64,000 nucleotides of DNA, from the IMG/VR virus record IMGVR_UViG_3300033463_000020. One strand, 5' to 3'. How positions within the stretch are numbered: the first letter of the stretch is position 1; each line of letters begins with the position of its first letter. The notes under the pieces are model-generated. The model ran no database searches and was not told the DNA's origin. It saw nothing but the letters and a program-made list of their open reading frames with translations. This DNA comes from a virus. Its lineage: Duplodnaviria > Caudoviricetes. Made by a program: the position numbers and the translations under genes. This document shows, piece after piece, positions 9,736 through 26,213 of the stretch.

Positions 9736-10857
9736 ATGTTAGATAGCAATAAAGTCAAAAAGCGCTTGACCACCGAGAATGTCATTGAGCTATGCTGCAC
9801 GCTACAGGATGACCGGAACGTGTTATATGATGCGCAGGGGCATCCGATTTTCAATACGTGTCTTTGCCACGGGGGAGACAGCGATAAGTTATATTATTAT
9901 CCCGAAACGCAATTGTTCCACTGCTACACCTGCGGTGATAGCTATGATATATTTTCGTTGGTTCAGCGCGCCAAGGGATGCGAATTTCGCGATGCGTTTC
10001 GGTATATCGTTGATTTTTTTAAGCTGAGAGGATTTCGAGACGACAGTGATGAAGATCCTCCGCTGAGCGATGACTGGGATATTTTCCAGCGCATTAAGGA
10101 CTGCGAAACCAATGGGGTCGTGCGCGAAGAAGCGCCCCCGATGCCCGAAAATCTATTGGAATTTTTCTACCCGCTCGCCGCGCCTCAGGAGTGGCAGCGC
10201 GATGGCATCAGCCCACAGGTCATGCGTGCCTTCGGCATTCGGATAGATAGTGCCTTGCAGCATATCATTATCCCGCACCGTAACGTGCGAGGTGAGCTTA
10301 TTGGGATCCGGCGGCGCTCTTATGATCCGCTGGAAGTAGCCGGTGGTAAGAAGTATATGCCGGTAATGATCGAGGGCGATATATATCGTCATAGTCTAGG
10401 CAGCAATTTATTTGGGCTATATGAAAATCAGCGTGTTATTCATAACACGCAAAAAGTTTTAGTAGCCGAATCCGAGAAGTCGGTTTTGCAACTCGCTAGT
10501 ATGTACGGGCTCGATCAGTGCTGGGCAGTTGCGACATGTGGCTCGTCGTTTTCACAGACGCAGATGAGCCTGCTACTGGAGCTCGGAGTATCTGAAGTGG
10601 TTTTGGGATTTGACCATGAGTTTACTGGTGGCCGCGGCGCAGATGATACTGTGGCGTATGAGGCTAAGCTTTTGAAAGTGGTGGCCCCTCTATTACCATA
10701 CGTCAATGTTTCGGTAATCATGGACTATGATGGATTGACGAAGTATAAGGACTCGCCCACTGATTGTGGCCGCGAGATTTTTGAACAACTTTATCACCAG
10801 CGGATACGGTTGTATACTTATGATGAAAAAAGAAAGACGAGGAAAAGGAATGGCTGA
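9736..10857 (+). CDS. dnaG: DNA primase (CHC2 Zn finger + TOPRIM)
   Basis: CH...FHCYTC Zn finger; IIIPHRN..GELIGIRRR; VAESEKS; LGFDHE. Confidence 0.85.
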   Translation: MLDSNKVKKRLTTENVIELCCTLQDDRNVLYDAQGHPIFNTCLCHGGDSDKLYYYPETQLFHCYTCGDSYDIFSLVQRAKGCEFRDAFRYIVDFFKLRGFRDDSDEDPPLSDDWDIFQRIKDCETNGVVREEAPPMPENLLEFFYPLAAPQEWQRDGISPQVMRAFGIRIDSALQHIIIPHRNVRGELIGIRRRSYDPLEVAGGKKYMPVMIEGDIYRHSLGSNLFGLYENQRVIHNTQKVLVAESEKSVLQLASMYGLDQCWAVATCGSSFSQTQMSLLLELGVSEVVLGFDHEFTGGRGADDTVAYEAKLLKVVAPLLPYVNVSVIMDYDGLTKYKDSPTDCGREIFEQLYHQRIRLYTYDEKRKTRKRNG

Positions 10858-11833
10858 AAAATTTTCTTATTCCAAGCTGAATACTTTTGAAGCCTGTGGG
10901 TGGAAATATAAGCTATAGTATGTAGATGGACATTATATTTCTGCAGATTCGCTGGCTATTTAGCTCGGTCTGCTGGTGCACGGGATCGAGGAAGAGATCG
11001 CACGCACTATTCAAATGGGGGGCAAGCCGGACTACGACAAACTGAAAGATAAATTTCAAAACGCGGGGATGGGTGGTGCTGCAACACCGGATCATCGTAG
11101 TGCCCTACAGGGGATTAAAGTTCTGTAGGAAAAATTCAAAGAAGATTTCTTTGAGCCCGATGACCGGGGTGCTTCATATCACACTCGCACGGAAGATTAT
11201 TTAGCTTATGGCATTTATCGCCTGGAGCGTTATTTGGCCCAGCATCCAACTTTAGAGATCTCGGGCATTGAGCAGTTCTTCTCTATAAATTTCCAGGGGA
11301 ATGTTCTGAGTGGTTATATCGACCGTGTCTTCCATGACCGCGAAACCAATATGTATTATGTCGAAGATATCAAAACACGGGCCAAGCCCTTCCGCGATAC
11401 CGAGCTTAATACTCCGTTACAGTTTGTTATATACGTGTATGCCCTGGCCGAGAATCTGGGGTTGGATTACAGCCATTTCCAATGCGCTTATGATCTTCCC
11501 TTTTTGGATACGAAACAAGTTGCAGGATCCTCCGGCTTTATGTCGCGAGGTCTGAAGAAAATACGTGAAGCGTTTGGAGATATCAAAGATAAAAACTTTG
11601 TGCCGTCACCGTCGCCACTGTGCCGGTGGTGCCAATTTTCTCCAACCAACCCCGGACAGCCGGAGGCCGGTAAATTATTGTGTCCATATTATTCGTTATG
11701 GACTCAAGAAAATCGGATCCACACAGTGGCTCACAAGTGGGAGGGCATTGAGCGTCATCCGGCTATTATGGCGGATGAAGTGCGGGCCCAAACGGCGAGT
11801 GAATCCAAAGTCTTGTCTGAGTTCGACTTCTGA
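10850..11833 (+). CDS. PD-(D/E)XK nuclease, Cas4/AddB-like with 4 Cys; 3 in-frame TAG
   Basis: FSYSKLNTFEAC N-terminus joined through TAG to GYIDRV, EDIKT, LQFVIY, CRWC...C. Confidence 0.85.
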
Positions 11834-18657: not shown

Positions 18658-19227
18658 ATGGCTATTTGGGTAACGAGTGATTGGCACTTCAATCACGGAA
18701 ATATTCTTCGCTTTTGTCGCTCATAGTTTGCGAATATCGAAGAACACAACGCTCTGATTATTGAGCGTTATAATGCGGTTGTAGGGCCAGACGATTTAGT
18801 TTATGTGTTGGGTGACGTTGGGTTCACCCCCGTGGGTGGCATCGCCGGCTGCGTTGAACAATTGAAGGGGCGCAAAGTCCTGTTAATTGGCAACCACGAT
18901 AAGCTACAAGATAGCATGTATCGTAAAATGGGCTTTATCAGTGTCGTACGTCATCCAATTTATTATACAACTAATATTATTTTAAGTCATGTTCCAATTA
19001 TAGAATGCTTAAACAATCCGTGGGCAATTAATGTCCACGGACATTTACATAAGAGCTATGTAAATTTACCCAACTATTTCAATGCAAACGTGGAGTTGCG
19101 CGATTTCGCTCCGGTCAATATGGACGAAATTGTAGCAATGGCGGACGGCATGTGTCGTCCATCTCGGTATGAACAATATACGCAGGAGTGGTACGCCGCC
19201 TGGGAGACCCGTTTACCGAATAGTTGA
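18658..19227 (+). CDS. Calcineurin-like metallophosphoesterase (1 in-frame TAG)
   Basis: SDWHFNH, LGDV, GNHD, HGHLH motifs. Confidence 0.88.
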
Positions 19228-19252
19228 TTTTGTTATGGCACCCCAATATAAT
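19224..19252 (+). promoter_or_regulatory. sigma70-type promoter with CCCAA extension
   Basis: TTGATT-17bp-TATAAT. Confidence 0.75.
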
Positions 19253-19290: not shown

Positions 19291-19572
19291 ATGACGATTA
19301 ACGGTATTAAGCAAATTTTTCACAATGTGGCGACACAGAAAGGTTATCAACTCGAAGAGCGCCCCTCGCTTTCCACCAATTCTTATTATTTCAAGTTGCT
19401 TGGAGCATCTAGTTCAATTCTGTTTCGTGTTTCGGATCATGCTACACGAGACAATGTAATTACTTTGCGTATTGATAAGAAATTAAATGTGGATCGTGTG
19501 CGCGGATTTATTCTAAATCGTTGTGCGGATTTAAGTGTGCGCCAGCGGGACAGATATTTTGCGCAACTGTGA
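19291..19572 (+). CDS. Hypothetical protein
   Basis: RBS GGAGG; S.Y...RVSDH motif common in small phage proteins. Confidence 0.65.
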   Translation: MTINGIKQIFHNVATQKGYQLEERPSLSTNSYYFKLLGASSSILFRVSDHATRDNVITLRIDKKLNVDRVRGFILNRCADLSVRQRDRYFAQL

Positions 19573-19581
19573 GGGAAAATT

Positions 19582-20781
19582 ATGACCAGTATATATTTGG
19601 ACGGGGCTGCTAATACCCCACTCTCAAGGGCTGCATTCCGTGCTATGCGGCCCTTTTTACGGCACGGGCTAGGGAACACTATGTCTGTGCACCATTTTGG
19701 CGTCGCCATGTTTACAGCGTTGGAGTAGGCGCGCGATACTATTGCCACGCTAACGCATGCGCGCCCCGAGGAGATTTTCTTTACTTCTGGAGCCACCGAA
19801 GGCAACAATTAGGCGATTATGTCTGCTGCCCAGCAATGGCGGGCCACGCACGAAACGGGAGGCCATATTATTTGTTCGGCGTTGGAGCACGATTCGGTAT
19901 TAAAGTGTTGTGTTAGAGTCGCCGAGATAATGCATTTTGATGTTTCTTTTGTACTGCCCAAGCAGGAAAATGGCTATCGTATAGACATGGCGGATATCAC
20001 CCCTTTGCTTCGACCGGATACTTTTCTGATCTGTGTTATGGAAGTAAACAACGAGCTGGGGACACGGAATCATGTGGCTCAAATTGCTTAGGAAGCCACT
20101 CTGCGCGGTATTGCCACACTAGTAGATTGTACCCAAGGGATTAGTACCGGGGGATCAAGTGTGGCTATCGCCAGTCGTATACCCTGTGCCACTTATTTAA
20201 CTTGTTCTGCGCATAAATTTTATGGCCCCACAGGCGTAGGGCTGTTAATTGCTCGGCGTGCGTTGGAACCGCTGATTGTCGGTGGAGGGCAAGAATAGGG
20301 GGCACGCGGCGGCACCCACAATTTGGCGGCTATCGTAGGCATGGCCGCAGCGCTAAAAGAATTGCACCGGACAGATTACTCGGGTCATTACCAGGCGTTA
20401 ACTAATCACCTGTGTGTGCGTTTAGCAACCAGCCTACCAGATGCCAGATTTAATGTGTGGCCCGACGCGCCCGGCATTGTAAGCCTTAACTGTGGCGCTA
20501 TGATCACCAGCGGACATTTAGCCAGCATGCTGGATAGTTATGGTATCGCAGTGAGTGCGGGTTCGGCATGTGATGCTGATCACGATGAAACCGCGGGGCA
20601 ATTTCACGCCTCTCACGTGTTAACTGCTCTTGGTTTGAGCGAAACGGAAATTCGTAACACAATACGCGTATCCTTTATTCGTACGACAACCATGAGGGAT
20701 ATTGATCGATTAGTGTTTGCGTTACGAGATTTATATGATTTATATTATTCTTCTGCAAAGGAGCCAAATGTTACAGTATGA
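19582..20781 (+). CDS. iscS: Cysteine desulfurase IscS/NifS (4 in-frame TAG)
   Basis: IYLD.AA, FTSGATEGNN, LEHDSV, VNNELGT, PLP-binding SAHKFYGP, GGGQE.G.RGGT, catalytic SAGSAC. TAG at 19726, 19810, 20089 and 20296. Confidence 0.92.
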
Positions 20782-21284
20782 TCAGGTTTGAAAAGGTAAG
20801 CTTCGAAGAGTTTTCACGGGCGTTAATTGAAAGTTGCGGTATTTTTCTCTCCACGGATGAACGGCGTGCATATTACGATGCAATTAAATTGCCTACGCGC
20901 AGCACGCCCGGAAGTGCGGGTTACGATATCGCGACTCCCATTCCAATTAATATACCCACAGATGGGCGTTATATTTTGGTACCGACGGGGATACGGTTCG
21001 TAACGGATCGTTCCGATATTGTCTTGTTATGTGCGCCGCGCAGCGGTTTGGGTTTTGGCAGAGGTGTCCGTTTGCGTAACACCCTGGGTGTGATTGATAG
21101 CGATTTTCAATTTTCAACTACGACGGGGCATATCATGCTAAAGCTGGGAGCTGACGAACCCTGTGAACTACCGGCAGGTCGAGCGTGTGTACAGGGGATC
21201 TTTGTTCCCTTTCTCACGGTAGATGACGAGACCACAGAGGGCATGGTACAGCGGACCGGCGGACTCGGTAGTACGGGGCGCTAA
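20778..21284 (+). CDS. dut: Trimeric dUTPase
   Basis: SAGYD, PRSGLG, GVIDSDF, RTGGLGSTG motifs. Confidence 0.92.
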   Translation: MIRFEKVSFEEFSRALIESCGIFLSTDERRAYYDAIKLPTRSTPGSAGYDIATPIPINIPTDGRYILVPTGIRFVTDRSDIVLLCAPRSGLGFGRGVRLRNTLGVIDSDFQFSTTTGHIMLKLGADEPCELPAGRACVQGIFVPFLTVDDETTEGMVQRTGGLGSTGR

Positions 21285-21285
21285 A

Positions 21286-21669
21286 ATGCGTATGACCAAT
21301 CTGTACAAAGAAACTGAATAGGTACTGGCTCGGCATAAATTAAAATGGAGCCATATTCGATTTGTGTGCGATAGTACAGGGGTGATCCCTTTGGCGGATT
21401 TTACTCGGCGCGCAGCCGTCATCGATTATGACGCCGACTATGGTGTGGTGTATATCGATCCCTCGCTGAAAATTGTTGGGGGCACCTGGTGGTTAGAGCG
21501 GGCGAACTATGACGGCCTGGAAGGCTGGGTTTTTCGGCGTAAGCCGGAGCAACCGGGAGTCTATGCTACTCCCGGACGTTTAATGGCAGAGCACCCGTTT
21601 GACGACAAAGGGTGGCAAGACGAGATTGAATTGTATGATCCACAAGAGCCACTGCGGTGGCATGTGTGA
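21286..21669 (+). CDS. Hypothetical phage protein (1 in-frame TAG)
   Basis: ATG 21286 joins ORF 21364-21669; YD.DYG...WWLER.NYDG.EGW motif. Confidence 0.65.
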
Positions 21670-21677
21670 GGCAATGG

Positions 21678-21887
21678 ATGGAAGATACTATAATTATTAA
21701 AAATCCCGATACGACCCTGGTAAAGGAGATCCAAGAAGCAATTGCGGCCAATGATGGTTACTGTGTGTGTGCCATTGAGCGCACGCCAGAGACCAAATGC
21801 ATGTGCAAGTTTTTTCGCGAGCTCCCGGAGGGACCGTGTCATTGCGGCCTATATATAAAAGTGAAGAAGGACGGTACGAATTCGTGA
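21678..21887 (+). CDS. Ferredoxin:thioredoxin reductase catalytic-subunit-like Fe-S protein
   Basis: GYCVC...KCMC..F....GPCHCGLY pattern (CxC, CxC, CHC). Confidence 0.75.
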   Translation: MEDTIIIKNPDTTLVKEIQEAIAANDGYCVCAIERTPETKCMCKFFRELPEGPCHCGLYIKVKKDGTNS

Positions 21888-22444
21888 ACATTTATTTGGC
21901 AGGGCCTATTTTTACCTATGGGGATTTACTGCGTAATACGGAGTGGGCAGCGAAAGTGCGTGCTGCGTTTCCTGGCGTAAACCTGTATTCGCCGGTGGAG
22001 AACACGGAGATCAACGGGGTCGAGGGCAAAAAGAAGTTTGCCGGATCTCAGGCGATCGTTAACGGGGACAATGCGCGACTGGACCACACAGACGTTTTGC
22101 TGGCATGTATTGACGGAGACGTTATCCCCGCGGGGACGGCAGCCGAAATTGGAAAATTCCACGAAAAAATTATGCGTGGTGATCGCAAGTGGATCGTAGG
22201 CATTTGCACTGACAATCGTCAGTGTCACTTGACTCATAGCGCAGCAAAAGATGCGGGCGGTGCATCGGCACCCGGAGAGCAGCAATATTCTTACCATAAC
22301 TTATATGTGACCGGGCTAATTAAACAGGCCGGCATTTTAGTAGACAATATTGATGACGCGATTGCGTTCATCCGTGACAATTGTGTCTGTAGAAAGGAGA
22401 CGGGCGACGAAATTGAAGGCGAAGTCTTCAATGATCGTTCATAA
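21884..22444 (+). CDS. Nucleoside 2'-deoxyribosyltransferase family protein
   Basis: IYLAGPIF, YSP.EN, D...L..TD...A.IDG, GTAAEIG, NLYV.G. Confidence 0.85.
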   Translation: MNIYLAGPIFTYGDLLRNTEWAAKVRAAFPGVNLYSPVENTEINGVEGKKKFAGSQAIVNGDNARLDHTDVLLACIDGDVIPAGTAAEIGKFHEKIMRGDRKWIVGICTDNRQCHLTHSAAKDAGGASAPGEQQYSYHNLYVTGLIKQAGILVDNIDDAIAFIRDNCVCRKETGDEIEGEVFNDRS

Positions 22445-22448
22445 GACC

Positions 22449-23753
22449 ATGAGTAATTTAATTTATGGGGTAACTGAGAGGCCCCGCAAGTTATCTGAGT
22501 GGATCGGATATATCGCGCAGTACTTTTTCTGTGTTTTACCGGCAACTATGCTGATCTCACGCATCTGCGGGACCAGTATTGCAGCCGGACTGGTGTCGGC
22601 AGGTCTGGGTACACTAACCTTCCTTGCCATCACAAAAATGCGCTGTGCGATGGTAACCAGTAATTCAGGCGCAACCGTTAGCGCGATCGTTGGTACAATG
22701 GCCTTGAGCAAAACCGTAGAAGCGGGTATGACAGGGGTCGTTGTGGGCGGCTCCATTATGATGCTCGTTTATATGATCGCGGCTATTCTGGTCAGAAAAT
22801 TCGGCACCAATTGGCTTAACAAGTTAATGCCTCCCGTAGTGTCGGGATCTACCATTATTGTAATTGGTGCGTCGCTTACTCTCTTTATTCCCGCATATGC
22901 GCAGGTCAACGGTCAGTTCTCTTATTGGGGCGTGGCTGTCTGCCTGTGTACCATGGCGGTCGCAGCCTTGGTCGGTCATTATGCTAAAGGAATTTGGAAA
23001 ACACTGCCCTTCTTGGCAGCGATCATTGTCGGTGACGTCCTGGCCATTGTTATTACGCTGTGCGGACTGGCTCCGCTGGTTGATTTTGCTGCGATGGTTC
23101 CCCATTCGGTCCTGTCGCTTCCCGAGCTCGCTTTCCTCCATCTAGATTTTGTAAACTTTGAGTGGTCGACGCTGCCCCAGATCTTACTGATGTTTGGGTT
23201 GGTGGCGCTATCGGCAATGACAGAGCACGTGGCTGATGTCACCACCGCCGGCAAAATTGCGGAACAAAATTATCTGCAGGATCCCGGGTTGCATCGAACG
23301 TTACTTGGTGACGGAGTGAGTTCGTTTGTGGGCTCCCTGACGGGCACACAGATGACCACTACTTATAGTGAGTACACGGGCACAATGGCCGTAAGTCGTG
23401 TGGCAAGTGCCTGGGTGACCCTGGGAACGGCTGTGGCATTAATTGTGTTTGCTTTTATCACACCGTTTACAAATTTCCTGGCGTCATTGCCCAACTGTAT
23501 TATTGCTGGAATTAGTATTTTAGCATACGGTGCTATTGCTAATACCGGGGTGCGAACATTGATCGATGCAAAGGTGAATTTTACACAGAATCGTAACTTG
23601 TTTATTTTTGCAGCCATGTTCTCCGCGGGTATTAGTGGCTTGGCCATTCCTATTACTGAAAATTTTGCAATTAGCGGCATTGTATTTGCAATGATCGTCG
23701 GTATTGTCTTAAATCTCATTTTACGAGAGCGGAAGGGTGACAGTAAAGAATGA
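22449..23753 (+). CDS. NCS2-family nucleobase permease (UraA/PyrP-like)
   Basis: Many TM segments; PPVVSG, EHVAD, DPGLHRTLLGDG, TTYSE..G...VSRVAS. Confidence 0.9.
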   Translation: MSNLIYGVTERPRKLSEWIGYIAQYFFCVLPATMLISRICGTSIAAGLVSAGLGTLTFLAITKMRCAMVTSNSGATVSAIVGTMALSKTVEAGMTGVVVGGSIMMLVYMIAAILVRKFGTNWLNKLMPPVVSGSTIIVIGASLTLFIPAYAQVNGQFSYWGVAVCLCTMAVAALVGHYAKGIWKTLPFLAAIIVGDVLAIVITLCGLAPLVDFAAMVPHSVLSLPELAFLHLDFVNFEWSTLPQILLMFGLVALSAMTEHVADVTTAGKIAEQNYLQDPGLHRTLLGDGVSSFVGSLTGTQMTTTYSEYTGTMAVSRVASAWVTLGTAVALIVFAFITPFTNFLASLPNCIIAGISILAYGAIANTGVRTLIDAKVNFTQNRNLFIFAAMFSAGISGLAIPITENFAISGIVFAMIVGIVLNLILRERKGDSKE

Positions 23754-24037
23754 ATGAGCCCAACACGCGAGAAGTGATTGGCGGCGCAACGCGGGCGGTT
23801 CGAGAATATTATGTCAATATGTATCCTCGGACCACCGCTATTTTACCGGATATTGACGTAACACTGATTTCATGCACCCAAATCCAGGGAGCCTGGTCAT
23901 TATTATTTGAGGTTTCTATGCCGGTAAGTGCTTTGTGCCGAGTTGAGGCTACATATATTCGAGAAGCATATTGTTATGAGATCACGGAGTTTTTGAAAAC
24001 TAATTCCGCATCTATAGTTCCGCATATTCCTAGTTGA
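23750..24037 (+). CDS. Hypothetical protein
   Basis: ATGA overlap with the permease stop. Confidence 0.55.
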   Translation: MNEPNTREVIGGATRAVREYYVNMYPRTTAILPDIDVTLISCTQIQGAWSLLFEVSMPVSALCRVEATYIREAYCYEITEFLKTNSASIVPHIPS

Positions 24038-26138: not shown

Positions 26139-26213
26139 TGGGGTGTAGTATAAAGGTCAGTACAACGGTCTCTAAAACCGAGAATCTCAGTTCGAGTCTG
26201 AGCGCCCCCGCCA
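26139..26213 (+). tRNA. Amber suppressor tRNA (anticodon CUA), probably Gln-charged
   Basis: CGGT-CTCTAAA-ACCG arm with CTA at 26172-26174; CTCAG-TTCGAGT-CTGAG T arm; G2:C71, G3:C70, G73, unpaired 1:72, encoded CCA. Confidence 0.93.

Follow-up and report, generated by a model that had tools for sequence, protein, structure and literature searches.

Positions 19,582 to 23,753 of a 64-kb stretch of rumen (cattle-gut) phage DNA (IMG/VR record IMGVR_UViG_3300033463_000020; hereafter the window, over which gene absences are reported) encode a cysteine desulfurase (IscS), a dUTPase, a small Cys-rich protein resembling ferredoxin:thioredoxin reductase (FTR) and ferredoxin:disulfide reductase (FDR) proteins, a nucleoside 2-deoxyribosyltransferase (NDT) and an NCS2/NAT nucleobase permease. 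A sequence-only reading had taken these five genes for a single base import and modification pathway. Comparison of ~170 related loci overall revealed that the NDT and NCS2 genes form a strongly co-conserved pair, whilst IscS belongs to the backbone of the phage family and is separate from the NDT-NCS2 unit. The block is therefore probably best explained as a phage nucleotide-supply island of separable units, and not as one pathway, in which base import is joined to salvage by deoxyribosyl transfer and IscS most likely feeds Fe-S proteins.

Co-conservation of the NDT and permease genes

Domains were called throughout with Pfam, NCBIfam and PHROGs profile searches, with TAG translated as Q. A scan of IMG/VR with exact NDT peptide patterns, a procedure biased to highly similar NDTs, retrieved 80 loci with NDT identities of 63-88%. 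According to tblastn and protein clustering, 73 of these also encode an NCS2 permease, at a median distance from NDT of 142 bp (maximum 1354 bp) and with NDT placed first in 59 loci and second in 14. Of the seven loci without a permease, four end within 640 bp after NDT, one has neither type of transporter gene, and two (L060 and L080) encode a PnuC-like transporter directly after NDT, in the permease's place (Pfam 3e-20; above the NCBIfam PnuC cut-off). Outside viromes, NDT relatives were confined to nine loci in ~185,000 species genomes and were nearly restricted to phage-like contigs; the pair was present in seven of these nine genome or metagenome-assembled genome (MAG) loci, even at 36-40% NDT identity, with several of the contigs being large and phage-like (128-151 kb) and lying inside MAG bins. 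A second, divergent NDT type (LGYLGGDIM...CETG) likewise stands beside a permease in L001 and in L171, which belongs to the L089 phage.

The desulfurase gene showed no such association. IscS was absent within 8 kb of NDT in all 80 NDT-fetched loci, yet every one of the 12 loci from the phage's own family had it. Only two of these 20-kb loci, L082 (which shares its contig with L001) and L093, contain an NDT-type gene and a permease; in a third member, the L089 phage, a type-B NDT and permease lie ~10 kb upstream of the IscS locus, between the nuclease and PolIII. Synteny thus upholds that part of the sequence-only reading which linked base import to deoxyribosyl transfer, but IscS is not co-conserved with the pair and the five genes do not behave as one pathway.

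The pair was found in two kinds of neighbourhood, usually NrdD-NrdG-[FTR-like::DUF4406 c5]-NDT-NCS2-...-dUTPase, and otherwise ligase-ClpP-PhoH-...-NDT-(Zn-ribbon)-NCS2. In L031, L069, L071 and L075 an NT5C deoxyribonucleotidase follows NDT, and would supply donor deoxynucleosides.

Replacement of the permease by PnuC-like nicotinamide riboside transporters, seen in L060, L080 and the Lactococcus 949-group phages, raises a different role for the pair, in which the NDT-fold enzyme would exchange a pyridine base (e.g. nicotinamide) imported by the permease or PnuC, restoring NAD precursors upon depletion of NAD+ by host defences. NDT-fold enzymes do include ADP-ribosyl cyclases that perform base exchange. 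However, the alignment of the window enzyme with a genuine NDT runs over its entire length, the neighbours of the pair are deoxynucleotide enzymes (NrdD, dUTPase and NT5C), no nicotinamide mononucleotide adenylyltransferase or nicotinamide riboside kinase was seen, and NCS2 proteins are not known to transport nicotinamide. Salvage of NAD as a counter to host defence is accordingly considered very improbable.

Several further features of these loci were observed. In L002-L081 the NDTs are 63-88% identical while PolIII alpha is ~34% and the adjacent permease ~36% identical; the high NDT identity stems partly from the pattern-based search, with NDT otherwise being either unusually constrained or moving on its own. 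About 20 loci (e.g. L006-L011) encode a Zn-ribbon-like protein of 94-197 amino acids (CxxC...CxC) between NDT and the permease, and in L018, L020 and L046 a second, more divergent Xan_ur_permease directly follows the first. The contigs of L164 (JAFRFD010000012.1; 151 kb, with the NDT-NCS2 pair) and P0004 (145 kb, with IscS) are deposited inside MAGs of Methanobrevibacter sp., though the bacterial-type replisome would make mis-binning likelier than an archaeal host.

The transferase and the permease

The window NDT matches the Pfam family Nuc_deoxyrib_tr (PF05014) at 44.1 bits (cut-off 28.8) and aligns end to end with the solved NDT 7m5h (4e-18), including the nucleophile Glu (GTAAEIG) and the Tyr of YLAGP, both of which were invariant in 15 phage sequences. 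Its likely start is the GTG at 21884, giving 186 amino acids and overlapping the TGA stop of the FTR-like gene; the NDTs of related loci begin at M(K/N)IYLAGP. Besides the nucleophile Glu and the Tyr of YLAGP, the phage enzymes share with bacterial NDTs (7m5h, CtNDT and that of L. leichmannii) the ALAD/NGD Asp and an NLY..GLIK segment at the C terminus. The window protein is an NDT-family enzyme with intact catalytic residues, and deoxyribosyl transfer is its predicted activity. Phage NDTs differ from the bacterial ones in a three-residue insertion (NGVEGKKKF) and in the residue six positions before the nucleophile, which is Pro in all 15 aligned phage NDTs (VIPAGT) and Asp in the solved NDT (TIDAGV). 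The residue at that spacing in CtNDT, D82, contacts the 5'-OH of the sugar (PMC10913048). CtNDT residues D62, D82 and E88 could be mapped onto the 7m5h chain, but not D111 and N118, whose numbering was inconsistent with it.

The permease scored 173.7 bits against the Pfam model Xan_ur_permease (cut-off 27). Its best solved relative is UraA of E. coli (3qe7, 5xls), whose structures align to it over the full length (1.4e-41), and UraA residues E241 in transmembrane helix 8 and E290 in transmembrane helix 10 were kept in all 67 full-length phage permeases. The first position of the NAT signature motif is a uracil-type Glu, and by this motif a uracil- or thymine-like pyrimidine is the candidate substrate. 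Although the phage permeases are only 31-45% identical to that of the window, the binding-site signature common to all 67 marks them as one permease subfamily.

The claim that an NCS2 transporter is unusual cargo for a phage held for deposited phage genomes, none of which contained a permease of >35% identity to that of the window; matches to the permease and IscS in these genomes were all below 37% identity, many of them in unannotated or contaminated records. For rumen viromes the claim failed, as permeases of this kind are common in them.

An FTR-like domain attached to nucleotide enzymes

The gene that precedes NDT encodes a Cys-rich protein of 69-76 amino acids, with the ATG at 21678 (69 amino acids) being the most likely start, and overlaps the NDT start by GTGA (21884-21887). 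Five of its six Cys residues were invariant across 11 homologues, and the sixth nearly so. A profile of the domain gave as its best PDB match 4tpu, the FDR of M. acetivorans (E 0.022), with the CVC, CMC and CHC motifs of the window protein aligned to CPC, CPC and CYC. In an AlphaFold model of the protein (pLDDT 86), the top Foldseek matches were again 4tpu together with 7pwe, at E 0.38-0.41, values short of significance for a domain of this size; in the VIA comparison each of these two chains gave Z 5.8 over residues 11-75 (64-65 residues; root-mean-square deviation 2.8-3.2 Å), and no other compared chain reached Z>=2. The window protein had no Pfam match at E 0.01 or better, whilst a homologue with 48% identity to its domain, P0217, passed the model FeThRed_B (PF02943; 23.6 bits, cut-off 22). 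The protein is a probable member of the FTR/FDR catalytic-domain family, and it probably binds a [4Fe-4S] cluster.

Homologues of this protein recur as parts of larger proteins. They form the N-terminal domain of 12 of the 31 proteins termed c5, which are located between NrdG and NDT and whose C-terminal domain is a DUF4406 (NDT clan) by Pfam (16 of 19 members match, best E 7e-7); a PDB sequence-profile search with this C-terminal domain was without a match. By sequence and Pfam, the fusions comprise NrdG-like::FTR (P0217, P0240) and FTR::DUF4406 (P0124), in addition to ThyX::FTR (P0243, L084:11968-12723) and FTR::NDT-like (P0164, identical to the L001 protein at L001:5175-6059). From these associations the domain may be seen as a portable Fe-S redox unit serving nucleotide metabolism in phages. 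In public data, the FTR-like domain was also carried by at least 568 longer proteins.

The three-CxC domain is common to the phage protein and methanogen FDR, and the arrangement of the genes is comparable as well. In the M. barkeri NrdD-NrdG-NrdH-FDR system, FDR delivers electrons to the class III ribonucleotide reductase (Wei et al. 2015 Biochemistry 54:7019, as cited in PMC5704485), and in the phage relatives the FTR-like domain directly follows NrdD-NrdG, as FDR does in the M. barkeri system as cited there. Unlike FDR, the phage domain measures only 60-70 amino acids with shortened loops, lacks a rubredoxin or glutaredoxin partner, and is fused in relatives, the window copy standing alone with no NrdD within 64 kb. 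The central residue of its third CxC varies (H, E, D, R or K), and in some members only one Cys is left in the first pair.

The cysteine desulfurase as a backbone gene

IscS matches Pfam Aminotran_5 at 199.2 bits (cut-off 21.5) over residues 4-377 of 399. Solved cysteine desulfurases align to it at 1.8e-49 with the pyridoxal phosphate lysine and catalytic cysteine in place, SAHKFYGP corresponding to SAHKMYGP (the lysine motif) and SAGSAC to SGSAC in desulfurase 9wep. In overall length, too, the protein resembles the group-I desulfurases (IscS/NifS, also DndA), whose lysine and catalytic cysteine loop it retains. Its NCBIfam matches were near equal for NifS (1.3e-71; 241 bits, cut-off 531) and DndA (8e-71; 239 bits, cut-off 480), followed by IscS (198 bits, cut-off 548); since every named equivalog cut-off (IscS, NifS, DndA and SufS) was missed, the label IscS is generic. 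It further differs from group-I desulfurases in being preceded, within the family, by a 93-amino-acid protein and in its four recoded TAG codons (19726, 19810, 20089 and 20296), the gene being a single open reading frame (ORF) only with TAG readthrough. At codon 77 (TAG, 19810-19812), 17 of 19 homologues have Trp in the aligned column; the remaining TAG codons, three in number, lie at variable columns, where Gln is only one among several residues. TAG may be decoded as Trp at least part of the time.

An IMG/VR scan with single-sequence IscS patterns gave no match, and 80 viral IscS loci were instead gathered by an alignment-based scan of viral contigs. Homologues of 40-56% identity were found on many contigs of 130-155 kb. 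Twelve of the loci (L082-L093; PolIII 43-73% identical) represent the phage's own family and have a common backbone, PDDEXK-PolIII-RecD2-metallophosphatase-93aa-IscS-(dUTPase)-101aa, in which the 93-amino-acid gene was present in 11 of 12 loci. The complete relatives G006 and G008 have no permease.

In other phage groups IscS was found next to NrdD-NrdG-FTR-like genes (L112, L135, L150, L152 and L158). Its other neighbours were IscU (five loci), NrdA, NrdB and glutaredoxin (five to six loci) and a dUTPase within three genes (15 loci). In L096, L097, L100, L104 and L105, IscS is inserted between the class I ribonucleotide reductase genes nrdA and nrdB, with glutaredoxin following.

The sequence-only reading had also raised sulfur chemistry as the purpose of the block, with IscS feeding a thio-base, DNA phosphorothioate or thiolation of the phage tRNAs and the five genes acting together. 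The desulfurase is intact and scores equally well against DndA and NifS, it has the promoter-like site and tight junctions in common with the other genes, and the phage tRNAs lie ~5 kb downstream. However, PP-loop SGGxDS and radical-SAM CxxxCxxC motifs were absent from + strand ORFs of >=80 amino acids in the window, as were a DndC-like gene in the window and IscU, Dnd or Tus partners near its IscS. Family members that lack NDT-NCS2 still keep IscS, all 80 NDT-fetched loci lack it, and its recurrent neighbours in the 80 viral loci are dUTPase, IscU, ribonucleotide reductase subunits and glutaredoxin; no thiolase-like cluster was evident among those common to at least four of these loci, most clusters not having been run against Pfam. 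Translation of the block may also be separated in time, as IscS contains four TAG codons and NDT, the permease and dUTPase contain none. A joint sulfur pathway is therefore held to be highly unlikely.

With no thiolase motifs in the window, a role in thio-base formation, phosphorothioation or tRNA thiolation is unsupported and Fe-S supply is the best remaining one: IscS most likely provides sulfur for the Fe-S clusters of phage proteins, for which its position beside NrdG, FTR-like genes and IscU in other phages is favourable. Of the earlier proposal that the block feeds a base into the dNTP pool or sulfur into Fe-S proteins and tRNAs, the import-transfer link and, plausibly, the Fe-S supply are retained and the tRNA branch falls away. 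Candidate clients in the window would be the FTR-like protein and a Cas4-like nuclease (10766-11833). In this nuclease a single Cys lies in the N-terminal part and a CxxC-x16-C in the C-terminal part, a spacing wider than that of the usual Cas4/AddB Fe-S motif.

The 93-amino-acid protein upstream of IscS was considered as a sulfur acceptor for the desulfurase, and this candidate was dropped. Its single Cys is not conserved, leaving no obvious persulfide acceptor; searches of Pfam, NCBIfam and PHROG gave no match, and its model (pLDDT 93), an alpha-beta3-alpha fold reminiscent of dsRNA-binding domains, had no clear or informative structural match.

A proposed salvage route and the identity of the base

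The favoured explanation, a nucleotide-supply island, can be set out as follows. The permease gene contains no TAG codons, for which reason the permease is proposed to be made early; it would sit in the host membrane and import a nucleobase, a pyrimidine of the uracil/thymine kind. NDT would move deoxyribose from deoxynucleosides derived from host DNA onto the imported base, and host kinases, on which the route would depend because the phages appear to bring none of their own, would complete the path to dNTPs. The dUTPase would keep dUTP out of DNA and supply dUMP. The FTR-like protein would serve as an Fe-S redox module attached to a nearby nucleotide enzyme (NrdG-like, ThyX, DUF4406 or NDT-like in relatives), being translationally coupled to NDT here, and IscS would furnish sulfur for the clusters of the FTR-like protein and of the Cas4-like nuclease.

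The distribution of thymidylate synthase bears on which base is imported. Whole-record searches detected neither ThyX nor ThyA in ten large NDT-NCS2 records (eight at >=90% complete) or in G009 and G010, that is in 0 of 12 permease-bearing records, and no permease in any of six ThyX-bearing records. The ten records lie behind L008, L011, L015, L037, L054, L066, L079, L081, L028 and L042 and measure 133-240 kb; most of these genomes carry NrdD, NrdG and dUTPase near the pair. L084, whose polymerase is nearest to that of the window (PolIII 73% identical), carries ThyX::FTR-like in the slot that follows dUTPase and the 101-amino-acid gene; in the window this slot is occupied by FTR-like-NDT-NCS2. 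This pattern fits thymine salvage replacing thymidylate synthase, and is a lead, not a result.

A sharper version of the favoured explanation is accordingly a thymine-specific bypass, in which NDT would place imported thymine onto deoxyribose (e.g. from dUMP-derived deoxyuridine) and host thymidine kinase would yield dTMP without folate. The uracil-type Glu of the permease agrees with this, as do the exchanged slot and the mutual absence of ThyX and permease. On the other hand, the exclusivity of ThyX and permease was seen in few genomes that are not phylogenetically independent, with several of the records being fragments; the complete relatives G006 and G008 have neither gene; five complete NDT-NCS2 genomes encode neither a thymidine kinase nor a deoxynucleoside kinase; thymidylate synthesis in all of these phages could be left to the ThyA of the host; and the specificities of permease and NDT are themselves read from sequence. 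The bypass is put forward only tentatively, as a possibility that falls short of being probable.

The points just given on sampling, on G006 and G008 and on kinases count against the nucleotide-supply explanation as a whole, and several others weigh with them. The best score of the phage permeases is to the NCBIfam uracil permease, but it lies below the cut-off throughout (209 bits against a cut-off of 477 for that of the window), and their substrate site departs from that of UraA, with F73 replaced by Gly and H245 by Asp in all 67 and with G289 and N291 variable. As Pro takes the place of D82, the sugar or nucleotide specificity of the NDT may be unusual. NDT is not known to need a redox partner, so that its coupling to the FTR-like gene is unexplained; the window has no NrdD or NrdG, and fusion of neighbouring phage genes can come from the mere loss of a stop codon.

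The same altered residues are what a non-canonical base route would draw on. Here the permease would import a modified base, NDT would load it onto deoxyribose, and virion DNA would become modified by salvage without a dedicated biosynthetic pathway. The permease pocket is changed in every member and the NDT at its sugar-contact position, these genomes have no thymidylate synthase, and NDT is more alike than the polymerase among the loci (63-88% vs ~34% identity, in loci fetched by exact NDT peptide patterns). Yet no dedicated kinase, canonical-nucleotide-specific dNTPase or modification enzyme was seen beside the pair, the dUTPase is an ordinary one, and the route is predicted from gene content. 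We regard it as unlikely, if somewhat less so than the sulfur and NAD routes.

Organization of the gene block and its surroundings

All long ORFs of the window lie on the + strand, and many are interrupted by TAG alone; a suppressor tRNA with anticodon CTA is encoded at 26139-26213. The features of the block are given in Table 1. That the genes are tightly coupled behind a promoter at 19224 was borne out, in that all of the genes named earlier are real by their domain matches, a promoter-like site is present, and the junctions consist of ATGA overlaps at 20778 and 23750, the GTGA overlap between the FTR-like gene and NDT, and otherwise gaps of 4-9 nt. Two genes of the block, the ORFs at 19291-19572 and 21364-21669, had been missing from the earlier list.

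Table 1. Features of the gene block, with positions numbered along the window
Feature	Coordinates	Strand	Evidence or remark
Promoter-like site	19224..19252	+	TTGATT-17-TATAAT, 10/12 consensus positions; consensus match only
93-aa ORF	19291..19572	+	Directly upstream of IscS; no family match
IscS/NifS-type cysteine desulfurase, 399 aa	19582..20781	+	Pfam Aminotran_5 1.3e-58
Trimeric-type dUTPase, 168 aa	20778..21284	+	Pfam 2.4e-11; PHROG 2.6e-30
101-aa ORF (phrog_3972)	21364..21669	+	PHROG match 7.6e-8
FTR/FDR-like Cys-rich domain protein	21657..21887	+	CVC, CMC, CHC motifs
NDT (nucleoside 2-deoxyribosyltransferase family)	ORF from 21797, likely start 21884, ..22444	+	Pfam 2.6e-11
NCS2/NAT permease, 434 aa	ORF from 22350, ATG 22449, ..23753	+	Pfam 6.6e-51; uracil-permease-like 7.6e-62
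95-aa ORF	23750..24037	+	No Pfam/NCBIfam/PHROG match; ATGA overlap with permease stop

The dUTPase scored 43.9 bits against Pfam (cut-off 22) and aligned with PDB entry 3h6x (1e-18) through all of its motifs (AGYD, PRSG, GVIDSD, the Q-containing motif and RTGGLGSTG), and is an ordinary dUTPase. It has an N-terminal extension of ~35 amino acids, and its start overlaps the IscS stop. The 101-amino-acid gene is conserved after dUTPase and was found by tblastn in seven of the 12 family loci. The 95-amino-acid ORF is the final gene ahead of the next comparable + strand promoter-like site, at 24034, and a 39%-identical homologue occupies the same position in L001. Upstream of the block lies a replication module encoding DnaB, primase, the Cas4-like PD-(D/E)XK nuclease, PolIII alpha, RecD2 and a metallophosphatase, and downstream are ClpP and the tRNA array.

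Relation to known systems and significance

The nearest known arrangement is that of the Lactococcus 949-group phages (949, WRP3, AM4 and P1048), in which an NDT, 31-34% identical to that of the window, likewise lies directly beside an importer gene. Their partner is PnuC-like, the type also used in the rumen loci L060 and L080, whereas the window and related loci use an NCS2 symporter of another fold and another substrate class; both arrangements are known from genes alone. Published comment on phage NDTs stops at 'nucleotide recycling' (PMC6669764), and a literature search for a phage module of NDT with a permease or with PnuC returned nothing specific. No description of the NDT-permease cassette or of the promiscuous FTR-like domain was found in the literature searched; they build on what is already known of phage NDTs, of PnuC transporters in phages and of the coupling of FDR to ribonucleotide reductase.

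The FTR-like fusions suggest that the nucleotide metabolism of phages of anaerobes may incorporate ferredoxin-type electron delivery, a point of relevance to the reduction of ThyX and class III ribonucleotide reductase in vivo. Two biochemical targets also emerge, namely the permease subfamily with its altered binding pocket and the NDT subfamily with its altered sugar contact. Membrane importers are seldom encoded by phages and have received little study, and here a nucleobase symporter is tied to a base-exchange enzyme across ~80 related rumen phages. The pair points to a widespread route by which phages of anaerobes would feed DNA synthesis from the free bases of gut fluid, possibly without thymidylate synthase.

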